DNA of 64,000 nt from Bacillota bacterium (GTDB lineage Bacteria; Bacillota; Clostridia; Saccharofermentanales; DTU023). Under the pieces are notes generated by a model, which was not told where the DNA came from, did not search any database, and saw only the letters and a program-made list of their open reading frames with translations. This document shows positions 32,174 through 55,986 of the stretch, piece by piece; the first letter of the stretch is position 1; each line of letters begins with the position of its first letter. The position numbers and the translations under genes were made by a program. The stretch is from the NCBI GenBank assembly GCA_029570375.1, contig JAKPXB010000040.1, forward strand, positions 155,464 through 219,463. The letters are read 5' to 3'.

Positions 32174-32244
32174 CGCAGGGACACTCTTTCTATGCCGTAA
32201 ACATCGCCATCGGTGAGCGGCAAAACGCTTAATTACGCTTTCTG

Positions 32245-32919: not shown

Positions 32920-32990
32920 GGTCAGTCCTCCTTCACTGCGCTCGATTGCCCTGCTCTATTGTCGCACATTTTATTGTGCGATATCCATCC

Positions 32991-34205: not shown

Positions 34206-34248
34206 CCTCTCCCATTGTCCCGCGCTTGTCCGTCCTTCCCGGAAGTCC

Positions 34249-36516
34249 TCAGACCGACAGGCCCGTCCTGTAACCCGCCCGTACCGCCTGCGCGATCATC
34301 CCCGCGTCCGCCGCGTCGCCGAGGAGATGGATCTCCGGCGTGATGTACTCGTCTTTGAGCAGACGATAGAACGAATCGTCCGGCTCGCTCCCGACAGCGA
34401 GAACAACGAGATCCGCCTCGATTGAGCGGGTGCGGATCTCCTGTCTGATCGGTTTCGCCAGAGGGTTGGGAATATTCTCGGGGAGAACCGGCGTCCACGT
34501 ATTGTAAGGATCCGGTACCGTAGCAGACTCGTTTACCCTGACGGAAACGCTTCCTTCCCCGATGCTCTCCAGCCGCGCGCAATTCATCAGTTTGACACCG
34601 CGCTTCTCAAGCTCATGGATGATATGGGTCCGGTTGGCCGTACAAATACCGCCCATAAAGACAGGGAGCATTTCAACTACGGTGACTTCCATATCGTGTT
34701 CGGCGGCAAGCATCAGCGCCACTTCAGATCCGACTGTCCCGCCGCCCACGACAACCGTTTTCCGCTTATCCTGGAGGAGCGTCAAATCTCCCAGAAGCGA
34801 CCGGGCGAGGACAGCCCGTTCGATTCCGGGGATGTCTGGAACCGTCTCACGGCTTCCCGTCGCACATACGATCACATCGTAGTGACCGTTCGCAAGCATA
34901 GCGAGTGTCGCCTCCGTATTCAGAAGGAGCTTGAAGTCGGGGTTGTCCCGGTCACATATTTCGACAGTGCGCTCCATCCATTCGAGGTAATTTCTCACAT
35001 CGCGCTTGAACAGCGGAACAGACGCGAGCCGCACCGTGCCGCCGACACCTTCCTGCTGATCGATCAGGTGTACCTCGTGGCCGCGGCTGAGAGCAGCCAT
35101 CGCGCATTCGAAGCCGGCGGGGCCCGCTCCCACGACCGCGATTTTCTTCCTGACGGGCGCCTTGGGCGGCTCCGCGGGAAGCGCCGACTCAAAGGAAGTC
35201 CGCGGATTGACAGCGCAGCACGGATGGCCTCCTTCGACAAATTCATGGATACAGGCTTCCTGACAGCCGATGCACGGCCGGATGGCGTCAACCCTGCCGG
35301 CGTAAGCTTTCTGCGGCCACGCGGGATCGGCGAGCAACGGCCTTCCAAGCATCACCATATCGCACATTTCATCCGCCAGAGCCTTCTCCGCGAGGTCGGG
35401 ATAACCGAGTTTGCCAACGGCGGCGACGGGGACGGGAAGTCCTTTGTTTGAGACGATTTTATGCTCAGCAAAATAGTCTTTGACCAGCTTGGATACATGA
35501 AGAAAAACACCGGGTTTCATTGTCACAGGCGGATGCGGGAGCCACCAGTTGTCGTAACATCCGAGGTCGACATCGAACAGATCGACGCCTGCCGCGACCA
35601 GGTTCTTCATATAGTCGAGCGTCTGTTCGATTGTCCGCTCATTTCTGAATTTCCGCAGTGTCTTTACCGTCCGCATACGCTCCCCGTAAGTCGCGTTCAG
35701 AGCCAGTGACAAATCGATCCTGTACATAATCGGATAATCGGGGCCGGTGCGCTTCCGGATCTCGCGGACGACGTCCAGTCCGAAGTTCTGCCAGTGGGCG
35801 TAGCGGCCGAGCCTGCGGCGGTTGAACGCGGGGTTTGTCAGCTGCTCCAGGAGATACCCCTCATGTCCGTGCAGATAGACGCCGTCAATCGTCGCGGCTT
35901 TGGCATCAGCAGCCGCCTGGCCGAAGTTCCTGATCATTTTCTTCAGTTTTCTCCCGGAAAGCCGGAGACACGGAACGCCGGGGAGATAGTAATTCGGATT
36001 GAGCGAAGCCGAAACGGGGAATTTATGCTGGTTTACCAGACACTGCGGATTCCCGACGCGCCCCAGGCCGGCAGTCAGCTGGATAAAGAAGCGGGCGCCC
36101 GCCGCGTGCGTATTATGCGCGATGTCGCGCCACCCTGAATAGTATGTCCTGCTCCCCAGAATTTTCGGGAAATACGTGAGGTCTCCCGGTTCTTTCAATG
36201 AATGATCGATTCCGAACGAGACAGGAACGAGCCCCGAAGTGATCAATCCGACGCCGCCTTTCGCGCGCTCTTCGAAATAGGCGATCATCGATCGATCCGG
36301 CCGGCCCGTCTCTTCCGCCTGCGAGATATTTCCCATCGGCGCCATGATCAGTCTGTTTTTCAATGTGAGGCTGTTGACGCGGATCGGGGAAAAAATTGAC
36401 TTGTAAGGGTAAAGCATCTGCGTCATACGGCCGCCGGCGATTTTTCCCTCATCGAGGAACCAGTCTCCGGAATCTTTTAACCAGTCCGCGAGCAATGTTT
36501 CCGGGTATTTTGACAT
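34249..36516 (-). CDS. OYE-like FMN oxidoreductase fused to FAD/NAD(P)-binding domain (2-enoate reductase / 2,4-dienoyl-CoA reductase family)
   Basis: LKNRLIMAPMG, then the Fe-S motif RPCIGCQEACIHEF...CCAVNP, then KIAVVGAGPAGFE and VVVGGGTVGSE dinucleotide folds. I chose the start MSKYPE (ATG 36516) with an upstream GGAAGG; the track ORF starts at 36552. Confidence 0.85.
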   Translation of the reverse strand: MSKYPETLLADWLKDSGDWFLDEGKIAGGRMTQMLYPYKSIFSPIRVNSLTLKNRLIMAPMGNISQAEETGRPDRSMIAYFEERAKGGVGLITSGLVPVSFGIDHSLKEPGDLTYFPKILGSRTYYSGWRDIAHNTHAAGARFFIQLTAGLGRVGNPQCLVNQHKFPVSASLNPNYYLPGVPCLRLSGRKLKKMIRNFGQAAADAKAATIDGVYLHGHEGYLLEQLTNPAFNRRRLGRYAHWQNFGLDVVREIRKRTGPDYPIMYRIDLSLALNATYGERMRTVKTLRKFRNERTIEQTLDYMKNLVAAGVDLFDVDLGCYDNWWLPHPPVTMKPGVFLHVSKLVKDYFAEHKIVSNKGLPVPVAAVGKLGYPDLAEKALADEMCDMVMLGRPLLADPAWPQKAYAGRVDAIRPCIGCQEACIHEFVEGGHPCCAVNPRTSFESALPAEPPKAPVRKKIAVVGAGPAGFECAMAALSRGHEVHLIDQQEGVGGTVRLASVPLFKRDVRNYLEWMERTVEICDRDNPDFKLLLNTEATLAMLANGHYDVIVCATGSRETVPDIPGIERAVLARSLLGDLTLLQDKRKTVVVGGGTVGSEVALMLAAEHDMEVTVVEMLPVFMGGICTANRTHIIHELEKRGVKLMNCARLESIGEGSVSVRVNESATVPDPYNTWTPVLPENIPNPLAKPIRQEIRTRSIEADLVVLAVGSEPDDSFYRLLKDEYITPEIHLLGDAADAGMIAQAVRAGYRTGLSV

Positions 36517-36576
36517 ACAACCACTTCCTTCCTCTGAGTTCACCTCAACCATACCACGCAGAGGGCTTCTTTTATT

Positions 36577-42386: not shown

Positions 42387-42428
42387 ACAGTCGTATCGAT
42401 AACTAAGTTCACGCAGGAGGTGCAAAAT

Positions 42429-43595
42429 ATGATTATCGGTGTTCCAAAGGAAATCATGGTTGGTGAAAGACGCGTTGCGGCTTCGCCCGAAACGGTAAAG
42501 AAAATGGTCGGCGACGGCTTGACTGTCCTTATCGAAAAAGAGGCCGGAGAAGGCGCTTTTTACCATGATCCGGAATATGTGGCAGCAGGAGCGGAAATAG
42601 TAGAGAACGTGGCTGATCTCTTCGATCGCGCGGATGTCATCCTGAAAGTAAAAGAACCGCTCTTCAATGAGAAACAAGGTAAGCACGAAGTCGACCTCAT
42701 GCATGAAGGCCAAGTCATTATTACATTCATTCACCCCGCCGCGCCGGTCAACCATGACATGGTGAAACATATGGCTGAATGCGGCATTACAAGCATCACG
42801 CTCGACGGCATCCCCCGCATCACGCGCGCGCAGGCGATGGACGCGCTGACCTCCATGAGCACATGTGCAGGCTACAAGGGCATGCTGATCGCGGCCAATG
42901 AACTGCCGAACTTCGTCCCGCAGATCTTCACAGCTGTCGGTATGATTAAGCCGATCAACGTCCTCGTCATCGGGACAGGTGTCGGCGGACTCCAGGCGCT
43001 CGCCACAGCGAAACGCCTCGGCGCCGTCGTTTACGCCGCGGATATCCGCCCGGCTGCCGCTGAGCAGGCGATGTCACTCGGCGCGAAGGTCGTCGACCTC
43101 GGCGTCCCTCCTGAGGAAGCCATCGGCGAAGGCGGATACGCCCTGATGCTTTCACCGGAGCGCCTCGAAGCCGAGCGCGAGATCCTCGCCGAGAAAGTCA
43201 AGGATATGGACATTATTTTCCTTTCCGCGCTCGTCCCCGGCAAACTCGCCCCGATCCTCATCACCGAAGAGATGGTCAAATCCATGAAGCCCGGATCCGC
43301 GATCGTCGATATCTCAATCGACCAGGGCGGCAACTGCGAGATCACCCCTTCCGGCACGATCGAAGTGAAACACAACGTGACACTCATCGGCATCAAGAAT
43401 ATCCCCGGACTGCTTCCGAAGAGCTCGACATGGATGTTCTCCCAGAACATCTACAACCTGTTGAAGTACCTGATCAAGGACAACCAGATTTACCTCGACA
43501 TGGAGGATCCGATCGTCCAGCAGGCGCTCACAACGTACCAGGGCAAAGTCGTCCACAAAGGTGCGCTTGAGGCCTTCGCCGCGCTTGGTCATTAA
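42429..43595 (+). CDS. pntAA: NAD(P) transhydrogenase subunit alpha part 1 (dI, NAD(H)-binding)
   Basis: MIIGVPKEIMVGERRVAASPETVKKM..., VLVIGTGVGGLQALATAKRLGA. ATG 42429 lies 8 nt after AGGAGG; the track begins at a GTG at 42420. Confidence 0.9.
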   Translation: MIIGVPKEIMVGERRVAASPETVKKMVGDGLTVLIEKEAGEGAFYHDPEYVAAGAEIVENVADLFDRADVILKVKEPLFNEKQGKHEVDLMHEGQVIITFIHPAAPVNHDMVKHMAECGITSITLDGIPRITRAQAMDALTSMSTCAGYKGMLIAANELPNFVPQIFTAVGMIKPINVLVIGTGVGGLQALATAKRLGAVVYAADIRPAAAEQAMSLGAKVVDLGVPPEEAIGEGGYALMLSPERLEAEREILAEKVKDMDIIFLSALVPGKLAPILITEEMVKSMKPGSAIVDISIDQGGNCEITPSGTIEVKHNVTLIGIKNIPGLLPKSSTWMFSQNIYNLLKYLIKDNQIYLDMEDPIVQQALTTYQGKVVHKGALEAFAALGH

Positions 43596-43610
43596 TCACT
43601 CCGTCAGCCT

Positions 43611-43643
43611 AAGTGCCGCGTCCTGACCGGACGCGGCACTTTT
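43611..43643 (+). terminator. Strong terminator-like hairpin inside the pntAA-pntAB spacer
   Basis: AAGTGCCGCGTCC-tgacc-GGACGCGGCACTT forms a 13-bp perfect stem running into TTTT. It sits 16 nt after the pntAA stop and 145 nt before pntAB. Confidence 0.55.
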
Positions 43644-43787
43644 CACTCCAGGCGTTAAGCTGAAGAGGGAACGGAGCGGACCGCCATTCACGGAAGTCCA
43701 GAGTGACAAGCTTTATCAGTTTACAGGCGCCGCGATTCCAAGCGGCGTTGCCTTGTCAAAAGAAATATTGAAAAAGGAGACACGTAC

Positions 43788-44090
43788 ATGACAACTACAC
43801 AGGCCATCCTTCTGGGCGTCTTCGTTGTGGCGACGCTGGTTGGCTACAAAATTATCACGCGCGTCCCGAGTCTGCTGCATACGCCTCTGATGTCAGGCAT
43901 GAACGCCTTTTCCGGCGTCACCGTCCTCGGATGTCTCGCCGCGACAGCGGCCGCGGCGCACTGGGGCAGCAAAATCCTCGGCTTTCTGGCGATCGTCCTC
44001 GCGATGATTAACGTCGTCAGCGGATTCGGTGTGACACACCGTATGCTGAGAATGTTCCACAGCAGTTCGAAGAAAGGGGCAGAAAAATGA
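43788..44090 (+). CDS. pntAB: NAD(P) transhydrogenase subunit alpha part 2 (membrane dIIa)
   Basis: 100 aa with three predicted TM helices, ...LLHTPLMSGMNAFSGV.... RBS AAAAGGAGA. The stop overlaps the pntB start (ATGA). Confidence 0.85.
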   Translation: MTTTQAILLGVFVVATLVGYKIITRVPSLLHTPLMSGMNAFSGVTVLGCLAATAAAAHWGSKILGFLAIVLAMINVVSGFGVTHRMLRMFHSSSKKGAEK

Positions 44091-46711
44091 TACATACCAT
44101 CTCCCGCATGGTTCTCGAAGCCATGCCTGCCCTCACAGTGGTTAATACAGGATCACAGACGTTCTACTACATCGCCGCGGGCGTGTTGACTGTTCTCGTC
44201 CTCGTCGGGATCTCCATGATGAGTAAAGTGGAAACCTCCGTTGTCGGGAACGCGCTTGGCGCGACAAGCATGTTTCTCGCTATTGTGCTGACACTCTGGT
44301 ATTTCGACATTCTTACGGTCTGGCTTCTCTATGCCGCCATGCTCGTCGGTCTTCTGATCGGTATTGTCGCGTCGATCCGCGTCAAGATGATTCAAATGCC
44401 GCAGATGGTCGGCCTGCTGAACGGATTCGGCGGCGCGGCCTCCATGCTCGCGGGTATTCTCACGCTGATTGCCGCCAGCCCGGATGAAACCGTCTTCTCA
44501 CTTCTGACATCCGGTCTCGCCATTTTCGTCGGCTCACTGACGCTGACAGGAAGCCTTGTCGCCGCGGGCAAACTCCACAAAGTTCTCCCGCAGCGCCCGA
44601 TCGTCCTGAGGAACCACCAGCTCTGGACGGCTCTCTCGCTCATCCTCTCGCTTGTAACCGTAGTGCTTCTCGGTATTCCCACTCTGCTGGATATCGCTGT
44701 TCTGAAGATCGTCTTGCTAATCGGGTGCGCGGTTTTTTCCGGCGCGTTCGGCGTGATCTTCGCGATCCGCGTCGGCGGAGCCGATATGCCGATCACGATT
44801 TCTCTCCTGAACTCTTTCTCCGGTGTCGCCGGCTCCATCGCCGGTATGGCGATCGGCGATCCGCTCCTCGTCGCGGTCGGCGGTGTGGTCGGAGCGTCCG
44901 GCCTCCTGCTGACGCAGATCATGTGCCGAGCGATGAACCGCAAGCTCTTCGACATCCTTCTCGGCAAAACGTCGGTCGCCGGCGCGCCTGCCGCGAAGAA
45001 ACCGGAACAGCCGAAAGCCGAGAAAGCGGCTCCCGTCAAAGCGGAAAAAGCGGTCCTTTCTCCGGAAGAATGCTGTGGCTGCTGGCTGCGTGACGCTGAG
45101 CGCGTCATCATCGTGCCCGGGTACGGCATGGCCCTTTCTCAGGCGCAATCGACGGTGAAACAGCTCATGTCCGAACTCGAAGCGGCAGGTAAAGAGGTCA
45201 AGTTCGCGATTCACCCGGTGGCCGGCCGTATGCCCGGCCATATGAATGTGCTCCTGGCTGAAGTCGATATCCCCTACGACAAACTCTATGAGATGCAGGA
45301 TATCAACGATGAGTTCAAAGACACCGATGTCGCGATCGTCATCGGCGCGAACGATGTCATCAATCCCGCCGCGAATACAGCGGAAGGCACCCCGATCTAC
45401 GGCATGCCGATCCTCAACGTCGTGGAATCGAAACACGCGGTCATCTGCAACTTTGACAAACTCCCCGGCTACGCCGGCGTCGACAACCCACTCTATGAAG
45501 AGGGCAAAGAAGACCGAATCGCGCTGATGCTCGGCGATGCGAAAGAGACACTCAACGCGATTATGAAATCCTATCGTTCATCAGGCGAAAAGACCGCCGA
45601 AACAGCGGCCGGCTCCGATGCCGCGATGACGCCGGAACTCCATTGCGGACAATGGCTCCGCGACGCGGAACGGGTCATTATCGTTCCCGGATACGGCATG
45701 GCGCTCTCACAGGCGCAGTCCATCGTCAAACAGCTCATGATGGATCTCGAAGCAGAAGGCAAAGACGTCAAATTCGCGATTCATCCCGTCGCCGGCCGCA
45801 TGCCCGGACATATGAACGTGCTGCTCGCCGAGGTCGATATTCCATACGACAAACTCTATGAGATGCAGGATATCAACGATGAGTTCAAAGACACCGACGT
45901 CGCGATCGTCATCGGCGCGAATGACGTCATCAACCCCGCCGCCAACACCGCGGAGGGCACACCGATCTACGGCATGCCGATCCTTGATGTCGCCGACGCC
46001 AAGCACGTGATCATCTGCAACTTCGACAAACTTCCCGGCTATGCCGGCGTCGACAACCCGCTCTACGACGAGGGACAGGAAGACAAGATCGCGCTCATGC
46101 TCGGCGACGCGAAAGAAACGCTTCAGTCGATTATCGGGGCTTTCCGCGTCTGCGAAGTCCCGCAGCCCGCCGCTGACGGCGGACAAACGGCTGAGCAGAT
46201 TTGCGGCTCGTGGCTGAACGACGCGAAACGGGTCATCATCGTCCCCGGTTACGGCATGGCGCTCTCACAGGCGCAGTCTATCGTGAAGCAGCTCATGGCA
46301 GAGCTCGAATCGGCGGGAAAAGACGTCAAATTCGCGATCCACCCCGTCGCCGGCCGTATGCCCGGCCACATGAACGTGCTGCTCGCGGAAGTCGACGTCC
46401 CCTATGACAAACTTCACGAGATGCAGGACATCAACGGCGAATTCAAAGACACGGACGTCGCGATCGTCATCGGCGCGAACGATGTCATCAATCCCGCCGC
46501 GAATACCGCGGAAGGCACGCCGATCTACGGCATGCCGATCCTTAACGTCGCCGACGCGAAGCACGTGATCATCTGCAACTTCGACAAACTCCCCGGCTAC
46601 GCCGGCGTCGACAACCCGCTCTACGACGAGGGACAGGAAGACAAGATCGCCCTGATGCTCGGCGACGCGAAAGAAATGCTGAACGCGATCATCAACGCCT
46701 ACCGCTGCTGA
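44087..46711 (+). CDS. pntB: NAD(P) transhydrogenase subunit beta with THREE tandem dIII (NADP(H)-binding) domains, 874 aa
   Basis: The N-terminal ~300 aa form the multi-TM dII. The block WL.DA.RVIIVPGYGMALSQAQ...HPVAGRMPGHMNVLLAEV...IGANDVINPAA...LPGYAGVDNPLY then occurs three times, separated by short Ala/Glu/Pro linkers. Confidence 0.85.
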   Translation: MIHTISRMVLEAMPALTVVNTGSQTFYYIAAGVLTVLVLVGISMMSKVETSVVGNALGATSMFLAIVLTLWYFDILTVWLLYAAMLVGLLIGIVASIRVKMIQMPQMVGLLNGFGGAASMLAGILTLIAASPDETVFSLLTSGLAIFVGSLTLTGSLVAAGKLHKVLPQRPIVLRNHQLWTALSLILSLVTVVLLGIPTLLDIAVLKIVLLIGCAVFSGAFGVIFAIRVGGADMPITISLLNSFSGVAGSIAGMAIGDPLLVAVGGVVGASGLLLTQIMCRAMNRKLFDILLGKTSVAGAPAAKKPEQPKAEKAAPVKAEKAVLSPEECCGCWLRDAERVIIVPGYGMALSQAQSTVKQLMSELEAAGKEVKFAIHPVAGRMPGHMNVLLAEVDIPYDKLYEMQDINDEFKDTDVAIVIGANDVINPAANTAEGTPIYGMPILNVVESKHAVICNFDKLPGYAGVDNPLYEEGKEDRIALMLGDAKETLNAIMKSYRSSGEKTAETAAGSDAAMTPELHCGQWLRDAERVIIVPGYGMALSQAQSIVKQLMMDLEAEGKDVKFAIHPVAGRMPGHMNVLLAEVDIPYDKLYEMQDINDEFKDTDVAIVIGANDVINPAANTAEGTPIYGMPILDVADAKHVIICNFDKLPGYAGVDNPLYDEGQEDKIALMLGDAKETLQSIIGAFRVCEVPQPAADGGQTAEQICGSWLNDAKRVIIVPGYGMALSQAQSIVKQLMAELESAGKDVKFAIHPVAGRMPGHMNVLLAEVDVPYDKLHEMQDINGEFKDTDVAIVIGANDVINPAANTAEGTPIYGMPILNVADAKHVIICNFDKLPGYAGVDNPLYDEGQEDKIALMLGDAKEMLNAIINAYRC
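45083..45580 (+). repeat. pntB dIII copy 1 (aa ~333-498)
   Basis: First unit of the intragenic tandem triplication. The conserved Trp codon is at 45083. Confidence 0.85.
45653..46150 (+). repeat. pntB dIII copy 2 (aa ~523-688)
   Basis: The equivalent Trp codon is at 45653 (570-bp offset). It differs from copy 1 at many synonymous third positions. Confidence 0.85.
46211..46708 (+). repeat. pntB dIII copy 3 (aa ~709-874)
   Basis: The equivalent Trp codon is at 46211 (558-bp offset). The unit runs to the natural C-terminus. Confidence 0.85.
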
Positions 46712-46780
46712 TGAGCCGCCCCGGCAGCGCCTCCCGCGCTGCCGCTGAAACACGGCCCCCGGGCCAACAAAACCAACAGA

Positions 46781-46819
46781 CCGGCACAGGAGGAAAAACG
46801 CTTCCCGTGCCGGTTTTTT
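46781..46819 (+). terminator. Intrinsic terminator after pntB
   Basis: CCGGCAC(a)GGAGG-aaaaacg-CTTCC(c)GTGCCGG followed by TTTTTT. Confidence 0.8.
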
Positions 46820-46951
46820 CTTCTACGAGGGGGAACGTGCCGTCTCTCATCTTTTCACAGCCCGAGGCAGTTCCCCGCTCCATTAACGTATAATAGAATT
46901 GGCGGCGAACAGGGACGTATCAGCCAATGCCAGAAGAGGAGAGGTACGAGT

Positions 46952-49006
46952 ATGAAAGAGATTTATAAACCGCTGTTTACCCCATGGAAAATCGGCAATG
47001 TCGAGATGAAGAACAGGATTGTCATGACATCGATGGGCGGCACCTCCATCTTCGGCTGGATGGAACCGAACCATTTTGACCGGGAGGCCGCCCGTTTTCT
47101 ACTGGAGCGGGCGAAGAACAACGCCGGCCTGATCCTTCCCGGCATCGCGCCGGTCCGCAACATTCTTTTCGGCCAATGGCTTTACAAGGGTCAGCGCAAA
47201 TTCGACCAGCTCGCGGCATACATGCAGGAATTTCACAAGACGGGCGCGAAGATGTTCATTCAGCTCACGGCGGGGTTCGGCCGCTCGCTCGCGATCAACG
47301 ACATCATGATCAAAGCGCTGAAGAACAAGGCGCTCGCCGCCGTGATGAAACCTTTTCTCGACGTCAGCTATCTAACGGCAAGCGCGAGCGCGACGCCGAA
47401 CCGGTGGTATGACGGCGTCCATTCCCGGCCGCTGACAGTCGGGGAGATCGAGGAAATGGTCGACGCGTTCGCCCGGACGGCAAAGCTTTGCATGGACGCC
47501 GGTGTCGACGGCATCGAAGTACACGCGGTGCACGAGGGATACCTCCTCGACCAGTTCACCATGAAGTACACGAACCTCCGCACGGACGAGTACGGAGGCA
47601 CTTTTGAGAACCGCTACCGCTTCCCCGTCGATATTGTCCGCGCGATCAAGGCGGCGTGCGGAAACGACTTCCCCGTATCGCTCCGCTATTCTGTCGTTTC
47701 CAAAACGAAAGGTTTCGGCAAGGGCGCGCTTCCGGGCGAAGACTATGAGGAAGCAGGACGCGATATGGAAGAGAGCATCCGGGCGGCGAAGTATCTGCAG
47801 GACGCGGGCTACGACATGCTGAACTGCGACAACGGGACGTACGACGCCTGGTACTGGAGCCATCCCGCGCCCTATATGCCGCAGAACTGCAATCTCCCCG
47901 ATGCCGAATACCTCAAACCTCATATCCACATTCCCATCGTCTGCGCCGGGCGCATGGAACCGGACGCGGCGGCGCAGTCGATCGGCGCGGGAAAGATCGA
48001 CGCCATGGGCGTCGCGCGCCAGTTCCTGTGCGACAGCGAGTGGGTTACAAAGCTCATGAACGACGACGAAGATTCCATCCGTCCCTGCATCTGCTGTCAT
48101 AACGCGTGTTTCAACATGGCGCATTACGAGGGCGTCGGCAACGACCAGACGCTATCCGACAACGCGGGCATGGCGCGCTGCGCGCTCAACCCCGAGACGA
48201 TGCAGTCGAAGAAATACCGCATCCGGCAGACGGCGCACCCGAAGGATGTCGCCGTCATCGGCGGCGGCATCGGCGGCATGGAAACGGCGCGCGTCCTGAA
48301 ACTCCGCGGGCACAACCCGACTATCTACGAAAAGACAGACAAGCTCGGCGGCGTCTTCGTCTGCGCTTCGACGCCGTCATTCAAGGAGAAGGACCGCGAC
48401 CTGCTCAAATGGTATGAGAAAGAAATCAGCGATCTGAATATCCCCGTCGTTTTCAATACGGAAATCAGCTCGCTCGATAAGATCCGCGCGGATGAGATTG
48501 TCATCGCCACGGGCAGCCGCCCGCGCCGGCTCCCGGTCCCCGGCGCAGAAAAAGCGATCGAAGCGTGCGACTATCTGAGCGGCGCGGCACAGACGGGAGA
48601 CCGCGTCATCATCATCGGCGGCGGGCTCACCGGCTGCGAAATCGCGCTTGACCTTTCGCTGAAGGGCAAGACGCCCGTGATCGTCGAGATGAAGCACGAC
48701 CTCATGGCCGTCCGCGGCCTCTGCCTCGCCAACTCCTCCTATCTGCGCGACTATTTCGCGCTGAACGGAACCGAAATCCACCTCAATACAACCCTTGCGG
48801 AAGTCACCGATACAGGCGTGATCGTCCGGAACAAGGACGGCAGGACCTTCCCCATCGACGGCGACACCGTCCTGCTGTCTGTCGGCTATCTCCCCGACCC
48901 GCTTATCAAGAAATCGCGCCGCGTCCGCCTTGTGGGCGACTGCAAAGACGTCGGCAACCTCCGCACCGTGATCTGGCGCGCCTGGGATGCCGCCATGGCC
49001 ATCTGA
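46952..49006 (+). CDS. OYE-like FMN oxidoreductase fused to FAD/NAD(P)-binding domain (2-enoate reductase family), paralog of 34249..36516
   Basis: MKNRIVMTSMGG, HAVHEGYLLDQF, the Fe-S motif RPCICCHNAC...CALNP, VAVIGGGIGGME and VIIIGGGLTGCE. Confidence 0.85.
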   Translation: MKEIYKPLFTPWKIGNVEMKNRIVMTSMGGTSIFGWMEPNHFDREAARFLLERAKNNAGLILPGIAPVRNILFGQWLYKGQRKFDQLAAYMQEFHKTGAKMFIQLTAGFGRSLAINDIMIKALKNKALAAVMKPFLDVSYLTASASATPNRWYDGVHSRPLTVGEIEEMVDAFARTAKLCMDAGVDGIEVHAVHEGYLLDQFTMKYTNLRTDEYGGTFENRYRFPVDIVRAIKAACGNDFPVSLRYSVVSKTKGFGKGALPGEDYEEAGRDMEESIRAAKYLQDAGYDMLNCDNGTYDAWYWSHPAPYMPQNCNLPDAEYLKPHIHIPIVCAGRMEPDAAAQSIGAGKIDAMGVARQFLCDSEWVTKLMNDDEDSIRPCICCHNACFNMAHYEGVGNDQTLSDNAGMARCALNPETMQSKKYRIRQTAHPKDVAVIGGGIGGMETARVLKLRGHNPTIYEKTDKLGGVFVCASTPSFKEKDRDLLKWYEKEISDLNIPVVFNTEISSLDKIRADEIVIATGSRPRRLPVPGAEKAIEACDYLSGAAQTGDRVIIIGGGLTGCEIALDLSLKGKTPVIVEMKHDLMAVRGLCLANSSYLRDYFALNGTEIHLNTTLAEVTDTGVIVRNKDGRTFPIDGDTVLLSVGYLPDPLIKKSRRVRLVGDCKDVGNLRTVIWRAWDAAMAI

Positions 49007-49047
49007 CGACGCCGTCTCTGAACGCAAACGCACAAAGGAGCTAACAC

Positions 49048-50319
49048 ATGGAACTGACAAAAGAACAACAGGCCATCCTTGACGGCAGCCAGGGAGAGGT
49101 CATGAGCAAAATCATGAAAACGCTCGTGATGTACGGCGAGACTTTCGGCGCGACGAAGATGGTCCCCGTCACGTCCACCTACGGCCACATCGTCACGAGT
49201 TTCGGCGTCATCGTGCTCAAGGGCGTCTTTGAGCTGATGGACGAGCTGATCGCGGGAGGCGTGAAATCCAAACAGCTTTTCTCCGCCGACCCCCGGCCGC
49301 TCGATAAGAAAGTCCCGAAGAACCTCCTGCAGGATCTCGTGTTTCACGTCATGTACGGGCCGCAGAAGCGCTACGAAGAACAGCTGCGGAAGATCGGGCT
49401 GCTCTCCGACGACGCGTTTACATGCGCGTGTTATTTCCCGGAAGTCGGCAACAGGCCGAAGAAAGGCGACATCCTCTCCTGGGCGGAATCGAGCGCCGTC
49501 AACTACGCGAACTCCGTCCTGGGGGCGCGCTGCAACAGAAACTCGGGGATCATCGAAATGTTCGGCTCCATCGTCGGCTACGTGCCGTATTTCGGACTTC
49601 TCACCGACGAAGGGCGCATGGCCTCGTGGATTGTCGAGGTCAGAACGGAGAAAATGCCCGAAGCACAGCTCCTCGGTTCCGCCGTCGGCATGAAGGTGCT
49701 GGAAGACGTGCCTTACGTCAAGGGCCTCGACCGCTGGATCGGAACGGAGCTCAACGACGCGGCCACTACCTACCTCAAGGATTTCGGCGCGGCCACTGCC
49801 TCGAACGGCTCCGTCGGCCTCTACCACATCGACAGGCTGACGCCCGAAGCCGTCGAACACGGCGAGAAACTCATCCGCCCCGACGCAAAGGTTTACGTCA
49901 TCGACGACGCCGAGCTCGAGCGTGTGAAGGCCTCCTATCCCGTTATCTGGAAAAAGAAGGACGCCAAACCGAAGCTCTGTTTCATGGGCTGTCCGCACAT
50001 GACGCTCGCGCAGCTCAACGACTGGACAGACCGCCTGGAGAAAAAACTCCGCGAAAAGAATCTCTCCAAAGTCAGGATAAAAACCGTCTTCACCTCCGCC
50101 CCCGCGGTGATCGAAGCCTTTAACAAGACGGAGCGGAGCCGGAAGCTGAAGGACATGGGCGTCGTTCTCTCCTACATCTGCCCGCTGATGTACATGAACA
50201 ACCCGCTCTGCGCCAAGATGCCCGTCATCACAAACTCCAACAAGCTCCGAACCTACACGTCGTCACGTTATTACACAGACGCGGAAATTCTCGATCAGAT
50301 CACGGGAGGAACAAAATAA
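49048..50319 (+). CDS. Aconitase X catalytic (large) subunit, DUF521 family
   Basis: MELTKEQQAILDGSQGEVMSKIMKTLVMYGETFGA... is typical of the DUF521/AcnX N-terminus. It is followed by an overlapping DUF126 partner. Confidence 0.75.
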   Translation: MELTKEQQAILDGSQGEVMSKIMKTLVMYGETFGATKMVPVTSTYGHIVTSFGVIVLKGVFELMDELIAGGVKSKQLFSADPRPLDKKVPKNLLQDLVFHVMYGPQKRYEEQLRKIGLLSDDAFTCACYFPEVGNRPKKGDILSWAESSAVNYANSVLGARCNRNSGIIEMFGSIVGYVPYFGLLTDEGRMASWIVEVRTEKMPEAQLLGSAVGMKVLEDVPYVKGLDRWIGTELNDAATTYLKDFGAATASNGSVGLYHIDRLTPEAVEHGEKLIRPDAKVYVIDDAELERVKASYPVIWKKKDAKPKLCFMGCPHMTLAQLNDWTDRLEKKLREKNLSKVRIKTVFTSAPAVIEAFNKTERSRKLKDMGVVLSYICPLMYMNNPLCAKMPVITNSNKLRTYTSSRYYTDAEILDQITGGTK

Positions 50320-50756
50320 TGGAAAAAATATTCAAAGGCCGCGTCGTCGTCCCCGGCGAAGCGACGCTCACCGCGCTCGTTTCGCACGGCGGCTTCAACA
50401 CACTCGCCTCCTACAAAGACTGCAAAGAAGGAAAGAACATCTGCACGGATCAGAACAACCCTGATCTCTTCGGCAAGTCGACCGTCGGCGTCGCGCTGTG
50501 CCTCCCCCAGACGATCGGCTCCACGACGGGCGGCATGGTCTTCTTCAACGCCGCCGTCATCAACTGCAACCCCGGCGCCATGCTCTTCTCGAAGCCAATC
50601 GATTCGCTCGCCGCGGCCGGCGCGATCCTCGCCTCGGTCTGGACACCCAACAACATTCCGACCGTCGATCAGCTCGGCGACGAATTCCTCGACTACGTGA
50701 AAGACGGCATGACGATTGAGATCCGGCCGGACGGCGAAGTCGTCGTCCGGGACTGA
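50319..50756 (+). CDS. Aconitase X swivel-domain (small) subunit, DUF126 family
   Basis: 145 aa, GRVVVPGEATLTALVSHGGFN...LPQTIGSTTGG.... The ATG overlaps the stop of the large subunit. Confidence 0.7.
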   Translation: MEKIFKGRVVVPGEATLTALVSHGGFNTLASYKDCKEGKNICTDQNNPDLFGKSTVGVALCLPQTIGSTTGGMVFFNAAVINCNPGAMLFSKPIDSLAAAGAILASVWTPNNIPTVDQLGDEFLDYVKDGMTIEIRPDGEVVVRD

Positions 50757-50890: not shown

Positions 50891-50932
50891 CCGCGGCGGT
50901 CGAAATCAGCCGGCCGGTTGCGACCGCCGCGG
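50891..50932. terminator. 12-bp GC hairpin between convergent genes
   Basis: CCGCGGCGGTCG-(18 nt)-CGACCGCCGCGG lies immediately downstream of the peptidase stop (50939). The flanking U-run is poor. Confidence 0.4.
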
Positions 50933-50938
50933 CACGAC

Positions 50939-52963
50939 TCAATCCTGCATACCCATTTCGTAGAACATGAAGGCATAGGTATCCGCCTGTTCGTCGATCA
51001 GCTTGGTCAGTGACTTGCCCACGCCGTGGCCGGCCTTTCGGTCGATGCGCAGCAAAATCGGGTGCTCCGAGCGGTTCTTTTCCTGGAGCGTCGCGCCGAA
51101 CTTGAACGAGTGGGCGGGGACAACGCGGTCGTCGTGGTCCGCCGTGCGGATCATGACGCTCGGATAAGGCTTTTCTTCAATGTTGTGCAGCGGCGAGTAC
51201 GCGAGGAGATTGCGGAAATGCGCTTCCTCGTCCGGATGGCCGTATTCCGGAATCCACCCCCAGCCGACCGTGAACAGATGATAGCGAAGCATATCCATGA
51301 CCCCGACGGTGGGGATAACGACGCGGTACAGTTCCGGGTGCTGATTCATGACCGCTCCCATCAGAAGCCCGCCGTTCGACCTCCCTTCAATGGCGAGCGT
51401 CTCACTCGAGCAGTACTGATGGCTGATCAGGTATTCGGCGCACTCTCTGAAATCATCGAATACCCGCTGTTTATTCAGAAGCATGCCCGCCCGGTGCCAC
51501 GCGTCGCCATATTCATTACCGCCGCGGATATTCGCCTGGGCGTACACGCATCCTCTTTCCATGAGATAGGCCGCCTGCGGACTGAAGCTGAGGGGCAGGG
51601 AAATACTGAAACCGCCGTACGCGTAGAGGAGCGCGGGATTCTTCCCGTCCCATTTCAACCCTTTCCGGTAGCTCAGGAAAAGAGGAATCTTCGCGCCGTC
51701 CGAGGCTTCGACAAAATGGCGTTCCGTGACAAAATCCGACATATCCAGCGCCAGTTTCGACTTTTTGAGAACCGTCGACCGCCCGTGTTCGAAATCGCAG
51801 AAGTAAAGCGTGAGCGGCTCGATAAAAGAGCCGAAGCTGTAGAGGAATCCGCCCAATTCCGCCGAACCGGCGAACTGAAGGACATTCCCCAGCCCGGGCA
51901 GAGCGACCTCCCGGCGCGCGCCTGACTTCAGGTTCAGGAGAATGAGCCGCGACGCGACATCCGCGAGATATTCCAGAATCAGATATTCGCAGGACAGGCG
52001 GGCGGATTTCAGGCCGTTCTCCCCCTCCGGCACAAGATCCGTTATCTCCATTGTCGCGGGACGGAAGGCGGCGATTTTTCCTTTCGGCGCGTGCTCATCC
52101 GTCAGGAACAACAACTGACCGTCATACTTCCCGATGAAAAAGCGGTTCGCGTGAAAACCCCCAAAAACGGAGCGGTAGTCTCCTTCGTCTCTATCGTACC
52201 AGAGCACCTCGTTGCCGTAGGTTCCCTCGCTCACATGGATGATTCTGTCCTGTTCATCCTTTGAAGTCACCGGCCGGTAGTAGCGCAGGGGGTGCCCCGG
52301 GTCGTTATAGATGAGCTGATCCTGAGCCTGATCCGCGCCGAGTTCGTGATAATAAACGCTCTGATATTCATTCCTGGCCGAGAGCTCGCCGCCCTCGTCC
52401 GGAGCGGCGTAGCGGGAATAATAAAAGCCGTTCCCTTCCCACGCGGCGTTTGTGAATTTCACCCAGCGCAATGCATCCGGGAGCGGCTTCTTCGTATCCA
52501 TATCGAGAATTCTCAGCGTCTGCCAATCCGAACCGGACTGAGAAATCAGATAGGGCAGATATTTCCCGTTCTTCGAGAACGACAGCAGCGTCACCGAGAC
52601 GGTACCATCCTCCGAAAGCGTGTTGGGATCGAGCAGAAGCTCGCTTTCACCGTCCAGTCCCTTTTGCACGTACCAGACTGGCTGATTCTGCAGCCCGCTG
52701 TTGTATTGATAGATGATCGTATCCTCATGCAGATCAAAGGCCATATATTTCTCATAATTGTGTAACGCGGTCAGGCGCTCGCGAACCTGTTCTCTGCCGG
52801 GAATGCGATCCAGATAGGCTCTCGTAAAGGCATTCTGCCGCTCCACAAACTGTGCCGTCTCCGCACTCTGATCATCCTCCAGCCAGCGGTACGGATCGTC
52901 GATCGCGATGTCGAAACGCGTTTCGGTCAAATCTTCTTTTCTCGTAACAGGATATGTATACAT
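50939..52963 (-). CDS. Prolyl oligopeptidase (S9A serine peptidase)
   Basis: I chose the start MYTYPVTRKEDL (GGAGGA upstream). DPYRWLED is the N-terminal signature, followed by a beta-propeller region. The catalytic region has GRSNGGLL ... DHDDRV.... Confidence 0.9.
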   Translation of the reverse strand: MYTYPVTRKEDLTETRFDIAIDDPYRWLEDDQSAETAQFVERQNAFTRAYLDRIPGREQVRERLTALHNYEKYMAFDLHEDTIIYQYNSGLQNQPVWYVQKGLDGESELLLDPNTLSEDGTVSVTLLSFSKNGKYLPYLISQSGSDWQTLRILDMDTKKPLPDALRWVKFTNAAWEGNGFYYSRYAAPDEGGELSARNEYQSVYYHELGADQAQDQLIYNDPGHPLRYYRPVTSKDEQDRIIHVSEGTYGNEVLWYDRDEGDYRSVFGGFHANRFFIGKYDGQLLFLTDEHAPKGKIAAFRPATMEITDLVPEGENGLKSARLSCEYLILEYLADVASRLILLNLKSGARREVALPGLGNVLQFAGSAELGGFLYSFGSFIEPLTLYFCDFEHGRSTVLKKSKLALDMSDFVTERHFVEASDGAKIPLFLSYRKGLKWDGKNPALLYAYGGFSISLPLSFSPQAAYLMERGCVYAQANIRGGNEYGDAWHRAGMLLNKQRVFDDFRECAEYLISHQYCSSETLAIEGRSNGGLLMGAVMNQHPELYRVVIPTVGVMDMLRYHLFTVGWGWIPEYGHPDEEAHFRNLLAYSPLHNIEEKPYPSVMIRTADHDDRVVPAHSFKFGATLQEKNRSEHPILLRIDRKAGHGVGKSLTKLIDEQADTYAFMFYEMGMQD

Positions 52964-53075
52964 CGGGCAAATTCCTCCGCTTGTCATGATACCGCAACCG
53001 TTTCCGCACACAATAACCGTTTTGTTTGATCCGCGCGCTGAACGCCCTCCGGGTTTTTCCGGAAAATCCCCAAAA

Positions 53076-53134: not shown

Positions 53135-53208
53135 ACATGACCGCCGCTTATCTCTCAATCTCGAGAGACCGCCGACCGGTCAATTCCAACACGAAAGAGG
53201 GTGACACC

Positions 53209-53508
53209 ATGATGCCTTTGAACTGGTTACGGCCTGATACAACTGGGTATGTCAAATGCATTCGCGGCCACGATGGCACGTGCCGTCATCTGCGATCTCT
53301 GGGCATAACAGAAGGCGAGCCCGTCCGCCTCACGCATCGAAATGGAAAAAACGTGATTATCGCCGTACGCGGGTGCCGCCTGGCGCTGGACGAAAGCCTG
53401 GCGCTCCGGATTTTCGTCTCTGAAGAATCGCCGGAAGAAGAGCTGTGCTCCTGCCCGGCGTGCCCTATGTCCAGCGGAAACAGCCCGGACCGTACGAAAA
53501 GCAGATGA
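53209..53508 (+). CDS. feoA: FeoA-domain protein with Cys-containing C-terminal tail
   Basis: I chose the start MMPLNWL after AAAGAGGG. Pattern: ...VKCIRG....RHLRSLGITEGEPVRL...IIAVRGCRLAL.... The tail reads CSCPACP. Confidence 0.75.
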   Translation: MMPLNWLRPDTTGYVKCIRGHDGTCRHLRSLGITEGEPVRLTHRNGKNVIIAVRGCRLALDESLALRIFVSEESPEEELCSCPACPMSSGNSPDRTKSR

Positions 53509-53536
53509 AAAAGAAACAGAAGGAGATATAGAAGAA

Positions 53537-53797
53537 GTGCTGACATTGAATGATTTGAAAGTCGGAGAAACAGCCGTCGTTGTGAGACTCCACGGCAAAG
53601 GCCCCGTCCGGCGCCGGATGATGGACATGGGGATTACAAAAGGGGTTCCTGTTCTTGTCAGGAAGTTAGCTCCGCTGGGCGATCCCGTCGAACTTACAGT
53701 GCGCCATTATGAGCTTTCGCTTCGAAAAGACGACTGCGCGCTGATCGAAGTCGAAAGACAAACGGATGCCGGCTCCCGTGCCACCCCATCGCGTTAA
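53537..53797 (+). CDS. feoA: FeoA-domain protein (second copy)
   Basis: GTG start after AGGAGA. LNDLKVGETAVVVRLHGKGPVRRRMMDMGITKGVPVLVRKLAPLGDPVEL. Confidence 0.8.
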   Translation: MLTLNDLKVGETAVVVRLHGKGPVRRRMMDMGITKGVPVLVRKLAPLGDPVELTVRHYELSLRKDDCALIEVERQTDAGSRATPSR

Positions 53798-53823
53798 AGA
53801 GAAGAGAGACAGGAGAAGAGACT

Positions 53824-55986
53824 ATGGTACAAAAAGGAATAAAAATCGCGCTTGCCGGAAACCCCAATTCGGGGAAAACAACGCTCTTTAACAAGCTCAC
53901 GGGGAGCCACCAGCACATCGGCAACTGGCCGGGTGTCACCATTGAGAAGAAGGAGGGCTCCATCAAAGGCCGGAAGGATCTGATCGTTCAGGATCTCCCC
54001 GGCATTTATTCTCTCTCCCCCTATACGCCGGAGGAGGAGATCTCAAGAGGCTACCTGCTGAACGAAAATCCTGATGTGATTCTCAATATCGTCGACAGCT
54101 CCAACCTCGAGCGCAACCTTTATCTGACGACACAATTGCTGGAACTGGGTGTTCCGGTCGTGGTCGCCCTCAACTTCATCGACATCGCGCGCCGCGACGG
54201 CGATAAGATTGATTCAAAAAAACTTGAAAGTCTCCTCGGCTGTTCCGTGATCGAGACGTCCGCGCTGAAAGGCGAAGGCGTGGACGCGTGTGTTGAACGA
54301 TGCATCCTCGCCGCAAACGGAGAAGACCCACACTACGAACGGGACAAAATCCGCACATCCTTCAGTGCACCTGTTGAAAACGCGCTCCGGGAGATTGAGA
54401 CTCTGATCGGAAAAACCGCGAAAGAGAGACACCGTTGGCTCGCGGTCAAGGCATTCGAACGCGATGAAAAAGCGCTCGCCGGCATTCCTCTGGCACCCTC
54501 CCGGAAGAAACAGATTGCGGAGATCATTGACCGCTGTGAAAAAGATCTCGACGACGACAGCGAGAGCATCATTACCGCGGAGCGGTATACGGCGATTAAA
54601 GCGATCACGGAAACGTCGATTGAACGCGCGAAACGACAGGATAATCTGAGTAAATCGGACCGCATTGACAAGATCGTGACGCACCGCTTCTGGGCTTATC
54701 CCATTTTCATTGTCATCATGGCTGCCGTCTACTATATCGCGATCAGCCTCGGAATCAACACACAGGATATGGTCGACGGGTGGTTCGGCGACGGTCTGAT
54801 CCCGCTCGTCCAGGGATGGCTCGAGAACGCCGGAGCGGCCGAATGGCTCACCGGTCTCGTGTGCGACGGCATCATCGGCGGTGTGGGCGCTGTACTCTCC
54901 TTTGTGCCGCAGATGATCATCCTGTTTGTCCTCCTGGGTATTATGGAGGATATCGGCTATATGGCACGTATCGCGTTTATCCTCGACAGGTTGTTCCGTC
55001 GTTTCGGGCTCTCAGGAAAGAGCTTTATTCCCATGCTCATCGGCACAGGATGCTCCGTCCCCGGTATTATGGCTTCACGGACGATTGAGAACCAGCGCGA
55101 CCGGCGCATGACGATCATCAACACGCCGATGATCCCGTGCGGTGCGAAGCTGCCTATCATCGCGCTTGTCGCGGGCGCTGTCTTCGGTGGCGCGTGGTGG
55201 GTGGCCCCTCTCGCTTACTTCCTCGGCTTTTTCGCTGTGATCGTCTCCGGTATTATCCTCAAGAAGACGAAAATGTTCCGCGGCGACCCGTCCCCATTTG
55301 TGATGGAGCTGCCCTCTTACCATATCCCCGCCGTCGGGAATGTCGCGCGGAGCACGTGGGAGCGTTCCTGGTCTTTCATCAAACGCGCGGGAACCATCAT
55401 CCTGCTCTCGAGCATCGTCCTCTGGTTCCTGCTGCACTTCGCTGTTATTGACGGCAGACTTACCATGATTGAAGATGAGATGATCGCTGACAGCATCGCG
55501 GCAAAAGTCGGAACCGTCCTCGGGTTTATCTTCGCCCCGCTCGGTTTCGGCGGATGGCAGGGATCGCTCGCGACCGTTACCGGCCTGATCGCAAAAGAAG
55601 AGGTCATCTCCACTTTCGGCGTCATCTTCAGAATTGAAGACGCGCTGGGGCTCGTCGAAGAAGGCCATTACGAGGGCGTCGCCGCCATCGCGCAGCATTT
55701 CACAAAACTGTCGGCCTTCTCATTCATGATGTTCAACCTGTTCTGCCCGCCGTGCTTTGCCGCGATGGGCGCGATCAAGCGCGAGATGAACAGCGTGAAA
55801 TGGACATGGTTCGCTATCGGATACCTGTTCGTCTTCGCCTATATCCTGTCCTTCATCGTCTACCAGATCGGCGTCCTCTTTACGGGTGCCGCGTTCACCG
55901 TTCTCTCCGGCGTGGCAGTCATTCTGCTGACGGGGTCGCTCTATCTCCTGTTCCGGAAACAGAGCGAAAAAACAACGCTTTCGTAA
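53824..55986 (+). CDS. feoB: Ferrous iron transporter FeoB
   Basis: IALAGNPNSGKTTLFNKLTG..QHIGNWPGVT (G domain), then a polytopic membrane domain. Confidence 0.95.
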   Translation: MVQKGIKIALAGNPNSGKTTLFNKLTGSHQHIGNWPGVTIEKKEGSIKGRKDLIVQDLPGIYSLSPYTPEEEISRGYLLNENPDVILNIVDSSNLERNLYLTTQLLELGVPVVVALNFIDIARRDGDKIDSKKLESLLGCSVIETSALKGEGVDACVERCILAANGEDPHYERDKIRTSFSAPVENALREIETLIGKTAKERHRWLAVKAFERDEKALAGIPLAPSRKKQIAEIIDRCEKDLDDDSESIITAERYTAIKAITETSIERAKRQDNLSKSDRIDKIVTHRFWAYPIFIVIMAAVYYIAISLGINTQDMVDGWFGDGLIPLVQGWLENAGAAEWLTGLVCDGIIGGVGAVLSFVPQMIILFVLLGIMEDIGYMARIAFILDRLFRRFGLSGKSFIPMLIGTGCSVPGIMASRTIENQRDRRMTIINTPMIPCGAKLPIIALVAGAVFGGAWWVAPLAYFLGFFAVIVSGIILKKTKMFRGDPSPFVMELPSYHIPAVGNVARSTWERSWSFIKRAGTIILLSSIVLWFLLHFAVIDGRLTMIEDEMIADSIAAKVGTVLGFIFAPLGFGGWQGSLATVTGLIAKEEVISTFGVIFRIEDALGLVEEGHYEGVAAIAQHFTKLSAFSFMMFNLFCPPCFAAMGAIKREMNSVKWTWFAIGYLFVFAYILSFIVYQIGVLFTGAAFTVLSGVAVILLTGSLYLLFRKQSEKTTLS

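Follow-up and report, generated by a model that had tools for sequence, protein, structure and literature searches.

A conserved gene trio of two-subunit aconitase X and a 2-enoate-reductase-like flavoenzyme, with a possible role in coenzyme A-free removal of β-hydroxyl groups in anaerobic bacteria

The window analyzed here is a stretch of 64,000 nucleotides from a Bacillota bacterium (GTDB lineage Bacteria; Bacillota; Clostridia; Saccharofermentanales; DTU023; GenBank assembly GCA_029570375.1, contig JAKPXB010000040.1, positions 155,464 to 219,463 of the forward strand). Our subject is a cassette of three plus-strand genes within it, which encode an iron-sulfur flavoenzyme and the large and small subunits of an aconitase X (AcnX-L and AcnX-S). 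In window coordinates, the cassette and its borders comprise the following features.

46778-46816, plus strand: hairpin of the intrinsic terminator of pntB (-24.1 kcal/mol, z = -3.9), with a U6 tract to 46822
46889..46951, plus strand: predicted operon leader, with a TATAAT -10-like hexamer at 46889-46894, no clear -35 element and a GAGGAGAGG Shine-Dalgarno sequence before the ATG
46952..49006, plus strand: Fe-S flavoenzyme, 684 aa (Pfam Oxidored_FMN, 5e-51; Pyr_redox_2, 4e-32)
49048..50319, plus strand: AcnX large subunit, 423 aa (AcnX PF04412, 1.6e-89)
50319..50756, plus strand: AcnX small (swivel) subunit, 145 aa (PF01989, 3e-11)
50891..50933, strand not applicable: GC-rich hairpin with a 13-bp stem, between the convergent AcnX-S and peptidase genes, no clear U-tract

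The open reading frame (ORF) listing returns the three genes at the coordinates given in an earlier note on this DNA, and the ORFs and Pfam domains bear out its description of a flavoenzyme built from an OYE-type flavin mononucleotide (FMN) barrel, an Fe-S linker and a flavin adenine dinucleotide (FAD) domain, followed by overlapping genes for the two AcnX subunits. A gap of 41 nt separates the flavoenzyme gene from that of AcnX-L, the AcnX-L and AcnX-S genes overlap by 1 nt (TAATG), and a Shine-Dalgarno sequence precedes each of the three. The strong terminator that the earlier note had placed after pntB is likewise present; it is the upstream boundary of the cassette and is followed by 130 nt of leader before the flavoenzyme ATG. 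A consensus promoter scan of this leader called no promoter, and a promoter at the TATAAT hexamer is only suggested. The hairpin beyond AcnX-S is likely the downstream boundary of the predicted operon. In one sequencing run (X20), whose material is only guessed to be RNA, three short exact contigs map to 46907-47205 and 48631-48835, with none matching the AcnX genes, a result that bears neither way on transcription or co-transcription. The source genome (1.73 Mb in 51 contigs, 95.6% complete) contains this AcnX locus only, and DNA of the window is matched at high identity in metagenomes from anaerobic digesters, manure and sludge, none of the listed records being registered as RNA.

The AcnX pair has the build of a two-subunit enzyme, with the large PF04412 domain and the PF01989 swivel domain on separate proteins encoded by adjacent genes. 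The nearest solved structure to AcnX-L is that of the archaeal type IIb phosphomevalonate dehydratase of T. kodakarensis (TK1249/TK1248; PDB 7CNR, 7CNS), with an E value of 1.4e-39 to 7cnr_A, whereas type I enzymes are matched at 1e-16 to 1e-17; AcnX-S matches 7cnr_B at 2e-5 with its G-S-T motif aligned. AcnX-L retains Cys126, Cys315 (within Gly-Cys-Pro-His) and Cys378, the archaeal cysteine pattern of the T. kodakarensis enzyme, whose third cysteine sets it apart from the type I enzymes with their [2Fe-2S] Cys508/Cys510 pair. Also retained are Glu147-Ser148-Ser149, Lys399 and Tyr403, which align with residues of both the T. kodakarensis and the A. tumefaciens enzymes, and, in AcnX-S, the catalytic Ser68 followed by Thr69-Thr70. 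The window pair thus shares with the archaeal enzyme its two subunits, three-cysteine pattern, Glu-Ser-Ser, Lys, Tyr and small-subunit Ser-Thr, and with the type I hydroxyproline dehydratase of A. tumefaciens its superfamily, the expected 2,3-dehydration of a 3-hydroxy acid and the catalytic Ser, Glu, Lys and Tyr. We took residue roles from Watanabe et al. 2021 (PMC8184944), according to whom the carboxyl group, the C3 hydroxyl group and the C1-C3 backbone of the substrate are recognized by homologous residues in both solved AcnX enzymes. Because the residues that make these contacts are kept, the AcnX pair is expected to form a 2-enoate by dehydrating a free 3-hydroxy acid.

The landmarks of the two characterized activities are, in contrast, largely gone. 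In the hydroxyproline enzyme (A. tumefaciens numbering), Asp203 binds the proline nitrogen, which Thr72 also contacts (PMC8184944); in the window enzyme Asp203 is replaced by Val49, Ile206 by Phe52 and Trp35 by Leu29 of AcnX-S, and Thr72 alone is kept, as Thr70 of AcnX-S. The NCBIfam model for cis-3-hydroxy-L-proline (C3LHyp) dehydratase scores AcnX-L at 129 bits against a cut-off of 700. In type IIb, phosphate is bound by the Gly48-Val49-Ser50 loop, Asn53 and Asn79 (PMC8184944), and here (T. kodakarensis numbering) Asn53 has become Ile55, Ser50 has become Phe52 and Asn79 has become Asp81. Identity as a C3LHyp dehydratase is not supported, given the three lost residues and the low equivalog score, nor is identity as a type IIb mevalonate-5-phosphate dehydratase, given the replaced phosphate ligands. 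On phylogenetic placement, proposed earlier as a check, AcnX-L is nearer type IIb than type I by match, and a tree of 31 full-length cluster representatives groups it apart from the IIb-like sequences. The window AcnX fits the description of subclasses IIc-f, which are type II enzymes lacking the landmarks of either activity and having no assigned function (PMC8184944), and by this description it would fall in neither subclass a nor b.

The outgroup nearest to the window AcnX clade (P0125, P0142, P0162, P0163 and P0203) retains all or most of the cluster cysteines, but one or more of Glu-Ser-Ser, Lys and Tyr are missing. In P0125, for example, Gly-Asp-Gly and Val are found instead, and the small subunit has only 90 aa. 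These proteins may be non-catalytic or re-purposed AcnX paralogues.

The 684-residue flavoenzyme folds, as predicted from its domains, into an OYE-type FMN barrel (Oxidored_FMN, residues 8-370), a [4Fe-4S] linker with a Cys-x2-Cys-x3-Cys ... Cys motif near residues 379-400, and FAD and NAD(P)H folds with two GxGxxG motifs, the architecture of the 2-enoate reductase/2,4-dienoyl-coenzyme A (CoA) reductase family. Its best matches among solved structures are FadH (1PS9, 1.5e-54) and 2-naphthoyl-CoA reductase (NCR; 6QKG, 3e-54), which match over the full length and share its domain order and Fe-S motif. Both act on CoA thioesters, and both have lost the pair of histidines before (E)GYL; the window enzyme, like classical OYE, keeps this pair as His-x2-His before EGYL. 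Since the pair is absent from these CoA-ester enzymes, the flavoenzyme looks like a free-acid ene-reductase and is a candidate for activity of the EC 1.3.1.31 type. Neither of the two NCBIfam identities that come closest applies, BaiCD being scored at 317 bits (cut-off 825) and BilR at 311 bits (cut-off 750). In the NAD(P)H fold, Ile-Val-Glu closes the second strand, and an acidic residue at this point of a Rossmann fold favors NADH, so that a transhydrogenase would not be needed. By description rather than by alignment, the enzyme resembles the clostridial 2-enoate reductases (EC 1.3.1.31; C. sporogenes FldZ and its counterparts in C. tyrobutyricum and C. kluyveri) in length class, in FMN/[4Fe-4S]/FAD-NADH build and in its origin from an anaerobe. 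Those enzymes have 665 aa and reduce free enoates with NADH, and their role as cinnamate reductases in Stickland metabolism is only "proposed" (PMC5882074). An AcnX partner, such as the window flavoenzyme has, is not described for them.

The window encodes a second enzyme of this family outside the predicted operon.

34249..36552, minus strand: second Fe-S flavoenzyme, 767 aa from the first ATG, behind a TetR gene

This gene had been listed as a 755-aa paralogue at 34249..36516. It is indeed a paralogue, although a distant one (28% identity to the 684-residue enzyme over the full length), and its reading frame is longer than was given. Orthologues of the 767-residue enzyme (53-64% identity) lie directly upstream of AcnX-L in L015, L049, L058, L075 and L115. 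In the window, the gene belongs to a minus-strand group at 31721-37269 in which TetR and the flavoenzyme are followed by GFO/IDH/MocA, DeoC-type aldolase and PCC domain genes, and none of these four neighbors is linked to AcnX loci elsewhere. Located 12 kb from the sole AcnX pair of the genome, the 767-residue enzyme may share that pair's product.

Thousands of proteins are closely related to AcnX-L; among the matches listed, the best 120 are at least 80% identical to it, and Oscillospiraceae, Eubacteriales and Christensenellaceae are among their labels. A scan with one genome per species found at least 598 stretches that encode a relative, the best 80 being 69-86% identical, with Lachnospiraceae, Oscillospiraceae, Acutalibacteraceae, Ruminococcus, Faecalibacterium, Anaeroplasma and Solobacterium among the labels. 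For comparison of gene neighborhoods we used 86 loci, namely these best 80 and six from other searches, with flanks of up to 10 kb a side. A flavoenzyme of the family stands beside the AcnX pair in 62 of the 86, in two gene orders and from two subfamilies. An orthologue of the 684-residue type is encoded on the same strand in 57 loci (directly upstream in 48, directly downstream in nine) and divergently in one more; in the other four, an orthologue of the 767-residue type is directly upstream, as it also is beside a further AcnX representative at 63% identity. Ten loci are too short for adjacency to be judged. In a sister clade at 46% identity, AcnX is paired with a third flavoenzyme subtype, which is 37% and 32% identical to the two flavoenzymes of the window. 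The core idea of the earlier note, that a dehydratase hands its product to a reducing flavoenzyme, is strengthened by these observations. Because the adjacency outlasts changes of gene order and the exchange of one partner for its paralogues, there is good evidence from comparative genomics that AcnX and the flavoenzyme are a functional couple.

The conserved unit is the trio and not a wider neighborhood. Clustering of all ORFs in the 86 loci returned no family outside the trio in more than 10 loci, and the flanking genes vary. Families seen repeatedly were an ABC ATPase (in 10 loci, never adjacent), feoAB (six), MarR (five, in which the regulator precedes the operon), MATE (five), DUF5696 (four), and DHDPS-family, OPT and MFS_2 transporter genes (three each). 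UbiD/UbiX, the decarboxylase to which type IIb enzymes of the T. kodakarensis kind are linked, is not among the recurring neighbor families annotated in these loci; the bacterial AcnX of the window is instead linked to a flavoenzyme. The OPT oligopeptide transporter genes follow AcnX-S on the same strand in three different genera (L023:8498-10450, L040:2288-4228 and L064:11871-13046).

Two neighbors of the cassette in the window had been drawn into its function previously.

42420-46711, plus strand: pntAA/AB/B, upstream of the cassette
50939-53011, minus strand: prolyl oligopeptidase (Peptidase_S9_N, 4.5e-95), convergent with AcnX-S

Both are present where the earlier note had them, the peptidase gene reaching 53011. 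The note's proposals that the transhydrogenase supplies the cofactor and that the peptidase points to a proline or hydroxyproline substrate are not supported, however: tblastn with PntAA, PntB and the peptidase of the window gave no match in any of the 86 loci and their flanks, and the residue expected to bind the proline nitrogen is Val49. A search for peptidase orthologues in the window genome and 24 relatives found one in the same genus (66% identity), which shares no neighbors with the window and whose genome was not found to contain the cassette; conversely, the same-genus genomes that carry the cassette yielded no peptidase orthologue. The cassette itself occurs in four of 22 same-genus genomes, at 70-71% identity and in the order AcnX-L, AcnX-S, flavoenzyme, whereas the window copy, in the order flavoenzyme, AcnX-L, AcnX-S, is 84-86% identical to copies of the same order in differently labeled lineages, and 85-86% to those labeled Lachnospiraceae, Ruminococcus or Bacillota. 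Because its closest identity and its gene order are thus found in other lineages rather than in its own genus, the cassette of the window was probably acquired laterally. On this comparative evidence, pntAB and the prolyl oligopeptidase are outside the system, and their proximity is specific to the source genome, since the cassette appears to be acquired and the peptidase is patchy among relatives. In annotation of the window, both the transhydrogenase and the peptidase should be left out of the pathway.

Representatives of sister clades, at 41-48% identity, occur in contexts that all concern free β-hydroxy or β-keto acids and yet differ from one another. P0129 (46% identity) is part of a flavoenzyme and AcnX L-S trio that begins 25 nt after a gene for a dimethylamine methyltransferase split at its pyrrolysine (Pyl) codon, with MttB-family genes and sigma-54 activators in the surroundings. 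Its sister P0135 (97/97 support) is an AcnX with L and S fused that is accompanied by 3HCDH, amino-acid permease and BKACE genes. P0130 is found with a LysR regulator, AcnX L-S, an MFS transporter and MhpA-, MhpC- and MhpB-like genes of aromatic meta-cleavage, and P0139 with SDR, 3HCDH, acetoacetate-decarboxylase-family and AFOR genes.

Two of these contexts hold details of their own. At L097:3584-8781 (and in L098), the Pyl-split methyltransferase is encoded as 348 + 104 aa, and around it are further MttB-family genes, some Pyl-split and others unsplit, and two sigma-54/PAS activators; this cluster may represent a route, so far undescribed, by which a methylated amino-hydroxy acid is processed. 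P0135 (L106:8001-9812, 603 aa) has its subunits fused in L-S order, the reverse of the S-L order of type I, so the fusion would be independent; a prolyl-oligopeptidase-family gene is 2 kb away.

We favor, with moderate confidence, the interpretation that the trio is a mobile, self-contained operon for CoA-free, two-step reductive removal of a β-hydroxyl group. In the first step, which is modeled on the conserved catalytic residues, the heterodimeric AcnX, with its [4Fe-4S]-type ligand set, would bind the carboxylate and C3 hydroxyl of a free 3-hydroxy-carboxylic acid; Ser68 of AcnX-S would take the C2 proton, and the hydroxyl group would depart on the cluster iron to leave a 2-enoate. In the second, which is proposed from the family of the flavoenzyme and from its conserved place beside AcnX, this FMN/[4Fe-4S]/FAD enzyme would use electrons from NAD(P)H, probably NADH, for reduction of the C2=C3 bond to the saturated acid, and this reduction could serve a fermenting anaerobe as an electron sink. 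The wider proposition that hundreds of gut, rumen and digester anaerobes use the cassette as an NADH sink, in a complete CoA-independent β-dehydroxylation of a hydroxy acid derived from diet or host, is more tentative, and we place it somewhat short of even.

For the substrate we can offer guesses within this interpretation. The specificity loop of the window enzyme, His-Ile-Val-Thr-Ser-Phe-Gly, is closest to the His-Val-Val-Thr-Ser-Met-Gly of the clade from aromatic clusters, and the cassette includes no transporter gene, which would suit a membrane-permeant weak acid. Because of this loop likeness, the MarR regulator in five loci and the transporter-free cassette, 3-aryl-3-hydroxypropionates, which would be converted through cinnamates to arylpropionates, are ranked first, weakly and as a minority guess. 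Short aliphatic 3-hydroxy acids such as 3-hydroxybutyrate come somewhat behind them, amine-bearing 3-hydroxy acids are a fainter guess again, and the remainder of our expectation goes to some other substrate.

Several points weigh against the interpretation. The activities of both the AcnX clade and the flavoenzyme clade are predictions, and co-transcription of the three genes is predicted from their spacing. In 14 of the 86 loci the AcnX pair has no flavoenzyme next to it, even though 2.3 kb or more of sequence flanks it on each side, so the dehydratase can act alone or with a distant partner. The best solved-structure matches of the flavoenzyme are CoA-thioester reductases, and a CoA-bound substrate is possible for it, though the loci show no linked CoA ligase or transferase. 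That flux runs in the reductive direction is judged from thermodynamics only. Lastly, the predicted pocket positions Val49, Phe52, Ile55 and Leu29 of AcnX-S, together with Asp81 where the solved enzymes have Asn, suggest a substrate side chain that is largely hydrophobic or uncharged, in a reading made by sequence alignment to two structures at ~20-35% identity.

Four other explanations were weighed against reductive β-hydroxyl removal. The flavoenzyme might have a CoA thioester as its substrate, or else an activated alkene that is not an acid, for instance a steroid or a tetrapyrrole like those reduced by BaiCD and BilR, with AcnX serving a different step. The family matches to FadH, NCR, BaiCD and BilR, which are its best among structures and NCBIfam models, and the 14 loci with AcnX alone speak for such a division, but both model scores are far below their cut-offs, the histidine pair missing from FadH and NCR is present, none of the loci has a linked CoA ligase or transferase, and the AcnX and flavoenzyme genes stay adjacent even where their order has changed or another flavoenzyme subfamily has been swapped in; we consider this explanation unlikely. 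A similarly low probability attaches to the same relay run in the oxidative direction, in which the flavoenzyme would dehydrogenate a saturated acid and AcnX would hydrate the enoate to a 3-hydroxy acid, as a CoA-free analogue of β-oxidation. Reactions of the aconitase family are reversible, and sister clades stand beside 3HCDH and β-keto-acid cleavage or decarboxylase genes that could take a 3-hydroxy acid onward. In the close clade, however, neither a 3-hydroxyacid dehydrogenase nor another downstream gene is linked, the oxidation of a saturated acid by NAD+ is strongly uphill by established thermodynamics, and the hosts are gut and digester fermenters with small genomes and no gene for a high-potential acceptor in the cassette.

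The two remaining explanations concern substrates that bear nitrogen, and both are improbable. An amine-bearing 3-hydroxy acid, for example L-carnitine converted through crotonobetaine to γ-butyrobetaine without CoA, or a demethylated relative, is suggested by the position of the P0129 trio 25 nt after the Pyl-split methyltransferase with several MttB-family genes around, and by the 3HCDH, BKACE and amino-acid permease genes adjoining P0135, which are of the families of aerobic carnitine breakdown. Asp81, which takes the place of the Asn of both solved enzymes beside the hydrophobic pocket, could be read in the same way, but it occurs also in the aromatic-cluster clade P0130, and P0129 and P0135 belong to another clade with the specificity loop HFVIAHA rather than the HIVTSFG of the window. 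Four of the seven cassette-bearing genomes among 41 searched (G009, G019, G023 and G039, 92-98% complete) gave no BCCT or OpuAC match. The cassette is also frequent in metagenome-assembled genomes of the ruminant gut, where little dietary carnitine is expected. Carnitine itself is not supported for the window clade because BCCT and OpuAC do not track the cassette across the window genome and its 40 relatives. The least probable of the four is the explanation by proline metabolism, in which AcnX would dehydrate cis-3-hydroxy-L-proline or a related hydroxy-imino acid, the flavoenzyme would reduce pyrroline-2-carboxylate to proline, and the peptidase and PntAB would supply substrate and reducing power. 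In its favor are Thr70 of AcnX-S, which corresponds to the nitrogen-contacting Thr72 of the Agrobacterium enzyme, the OPT transporter after AcnX-S in three of the 86 loci, and prolyl-oligopeptidase-family genes 2-6 kb from the distant AcnX members L106 and L099. It is opposed by the replacement of Asp203, Trp35 and Ile206, the low C3LHyp model score, the nearer match to archaeal type IIb than to type I, and the consistent lack of pnt and peptidase genes in the 86 loci, together with the failure of peptidase and cassette to co-occur among relatives. Further, in type IIa, the second hydroxyproline class, every residue that binds C3LHyp is conserved (PMC8184944), and the window AcnX differs from type I in that its genes are unfused and have no hydroxyproline catabolic genes near them.

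Within the aconitase superfamily, AcnX is the branch about which least is understood, with only two activities known and four bacterial subclasses without an assigned substrate (PMC8184944). The clostridial 2-enoate reductases have been studied as biocatalysts, and their cellular role is left unestablished by the source consulted (PMC5882074). In the literature searched on AcnX and enoate reductases, a pairing or an operon of the two is not described. A conserved, mobile operon joining the two, in at least 598 species-genome stretches from gut, rumen and digester anaerobes, points to an undescribed, CoA-free, two-enzyme route from a free 3-hydroxy acid to a saturated acid. If the wider proposition of an NADH sink is correct, it would give a first function to a subclass of AcnX type IIc-f and a physiological partner to the clostridial-type 2-enoate reductases; among the candidate substrates, 3-aryl-3-hydroxypropionates are precursors of phenylpropionates released by gut microbes. 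The identity of the substrate would lend a function to the thousands of genes now labeled only "aconitase X" or "NADH:flavin oxidoreductase", would possibly account for a transformation of metabolites by gut microbes, and would provide a compact, oxygen-sensitive dehydration-reduction module for biocatalysis.

Two observations concern genes around the cassette. The feoA/feoB genes are beside the AcnX pair, or no more than a few kb from it, in L037, L047, L078, L081, L086 and L091, and the feo operon of the window (53137-55986) begins 2.4 kb downstream of AcnX-S; this proximity may be a weak association of iron supply with two Fe-S enzymes, or chance. Upstream of the cassette, pntB (44087-46711) encodes a protein of 874 aa, three stretches of which match the PNTB model (1028 bits).

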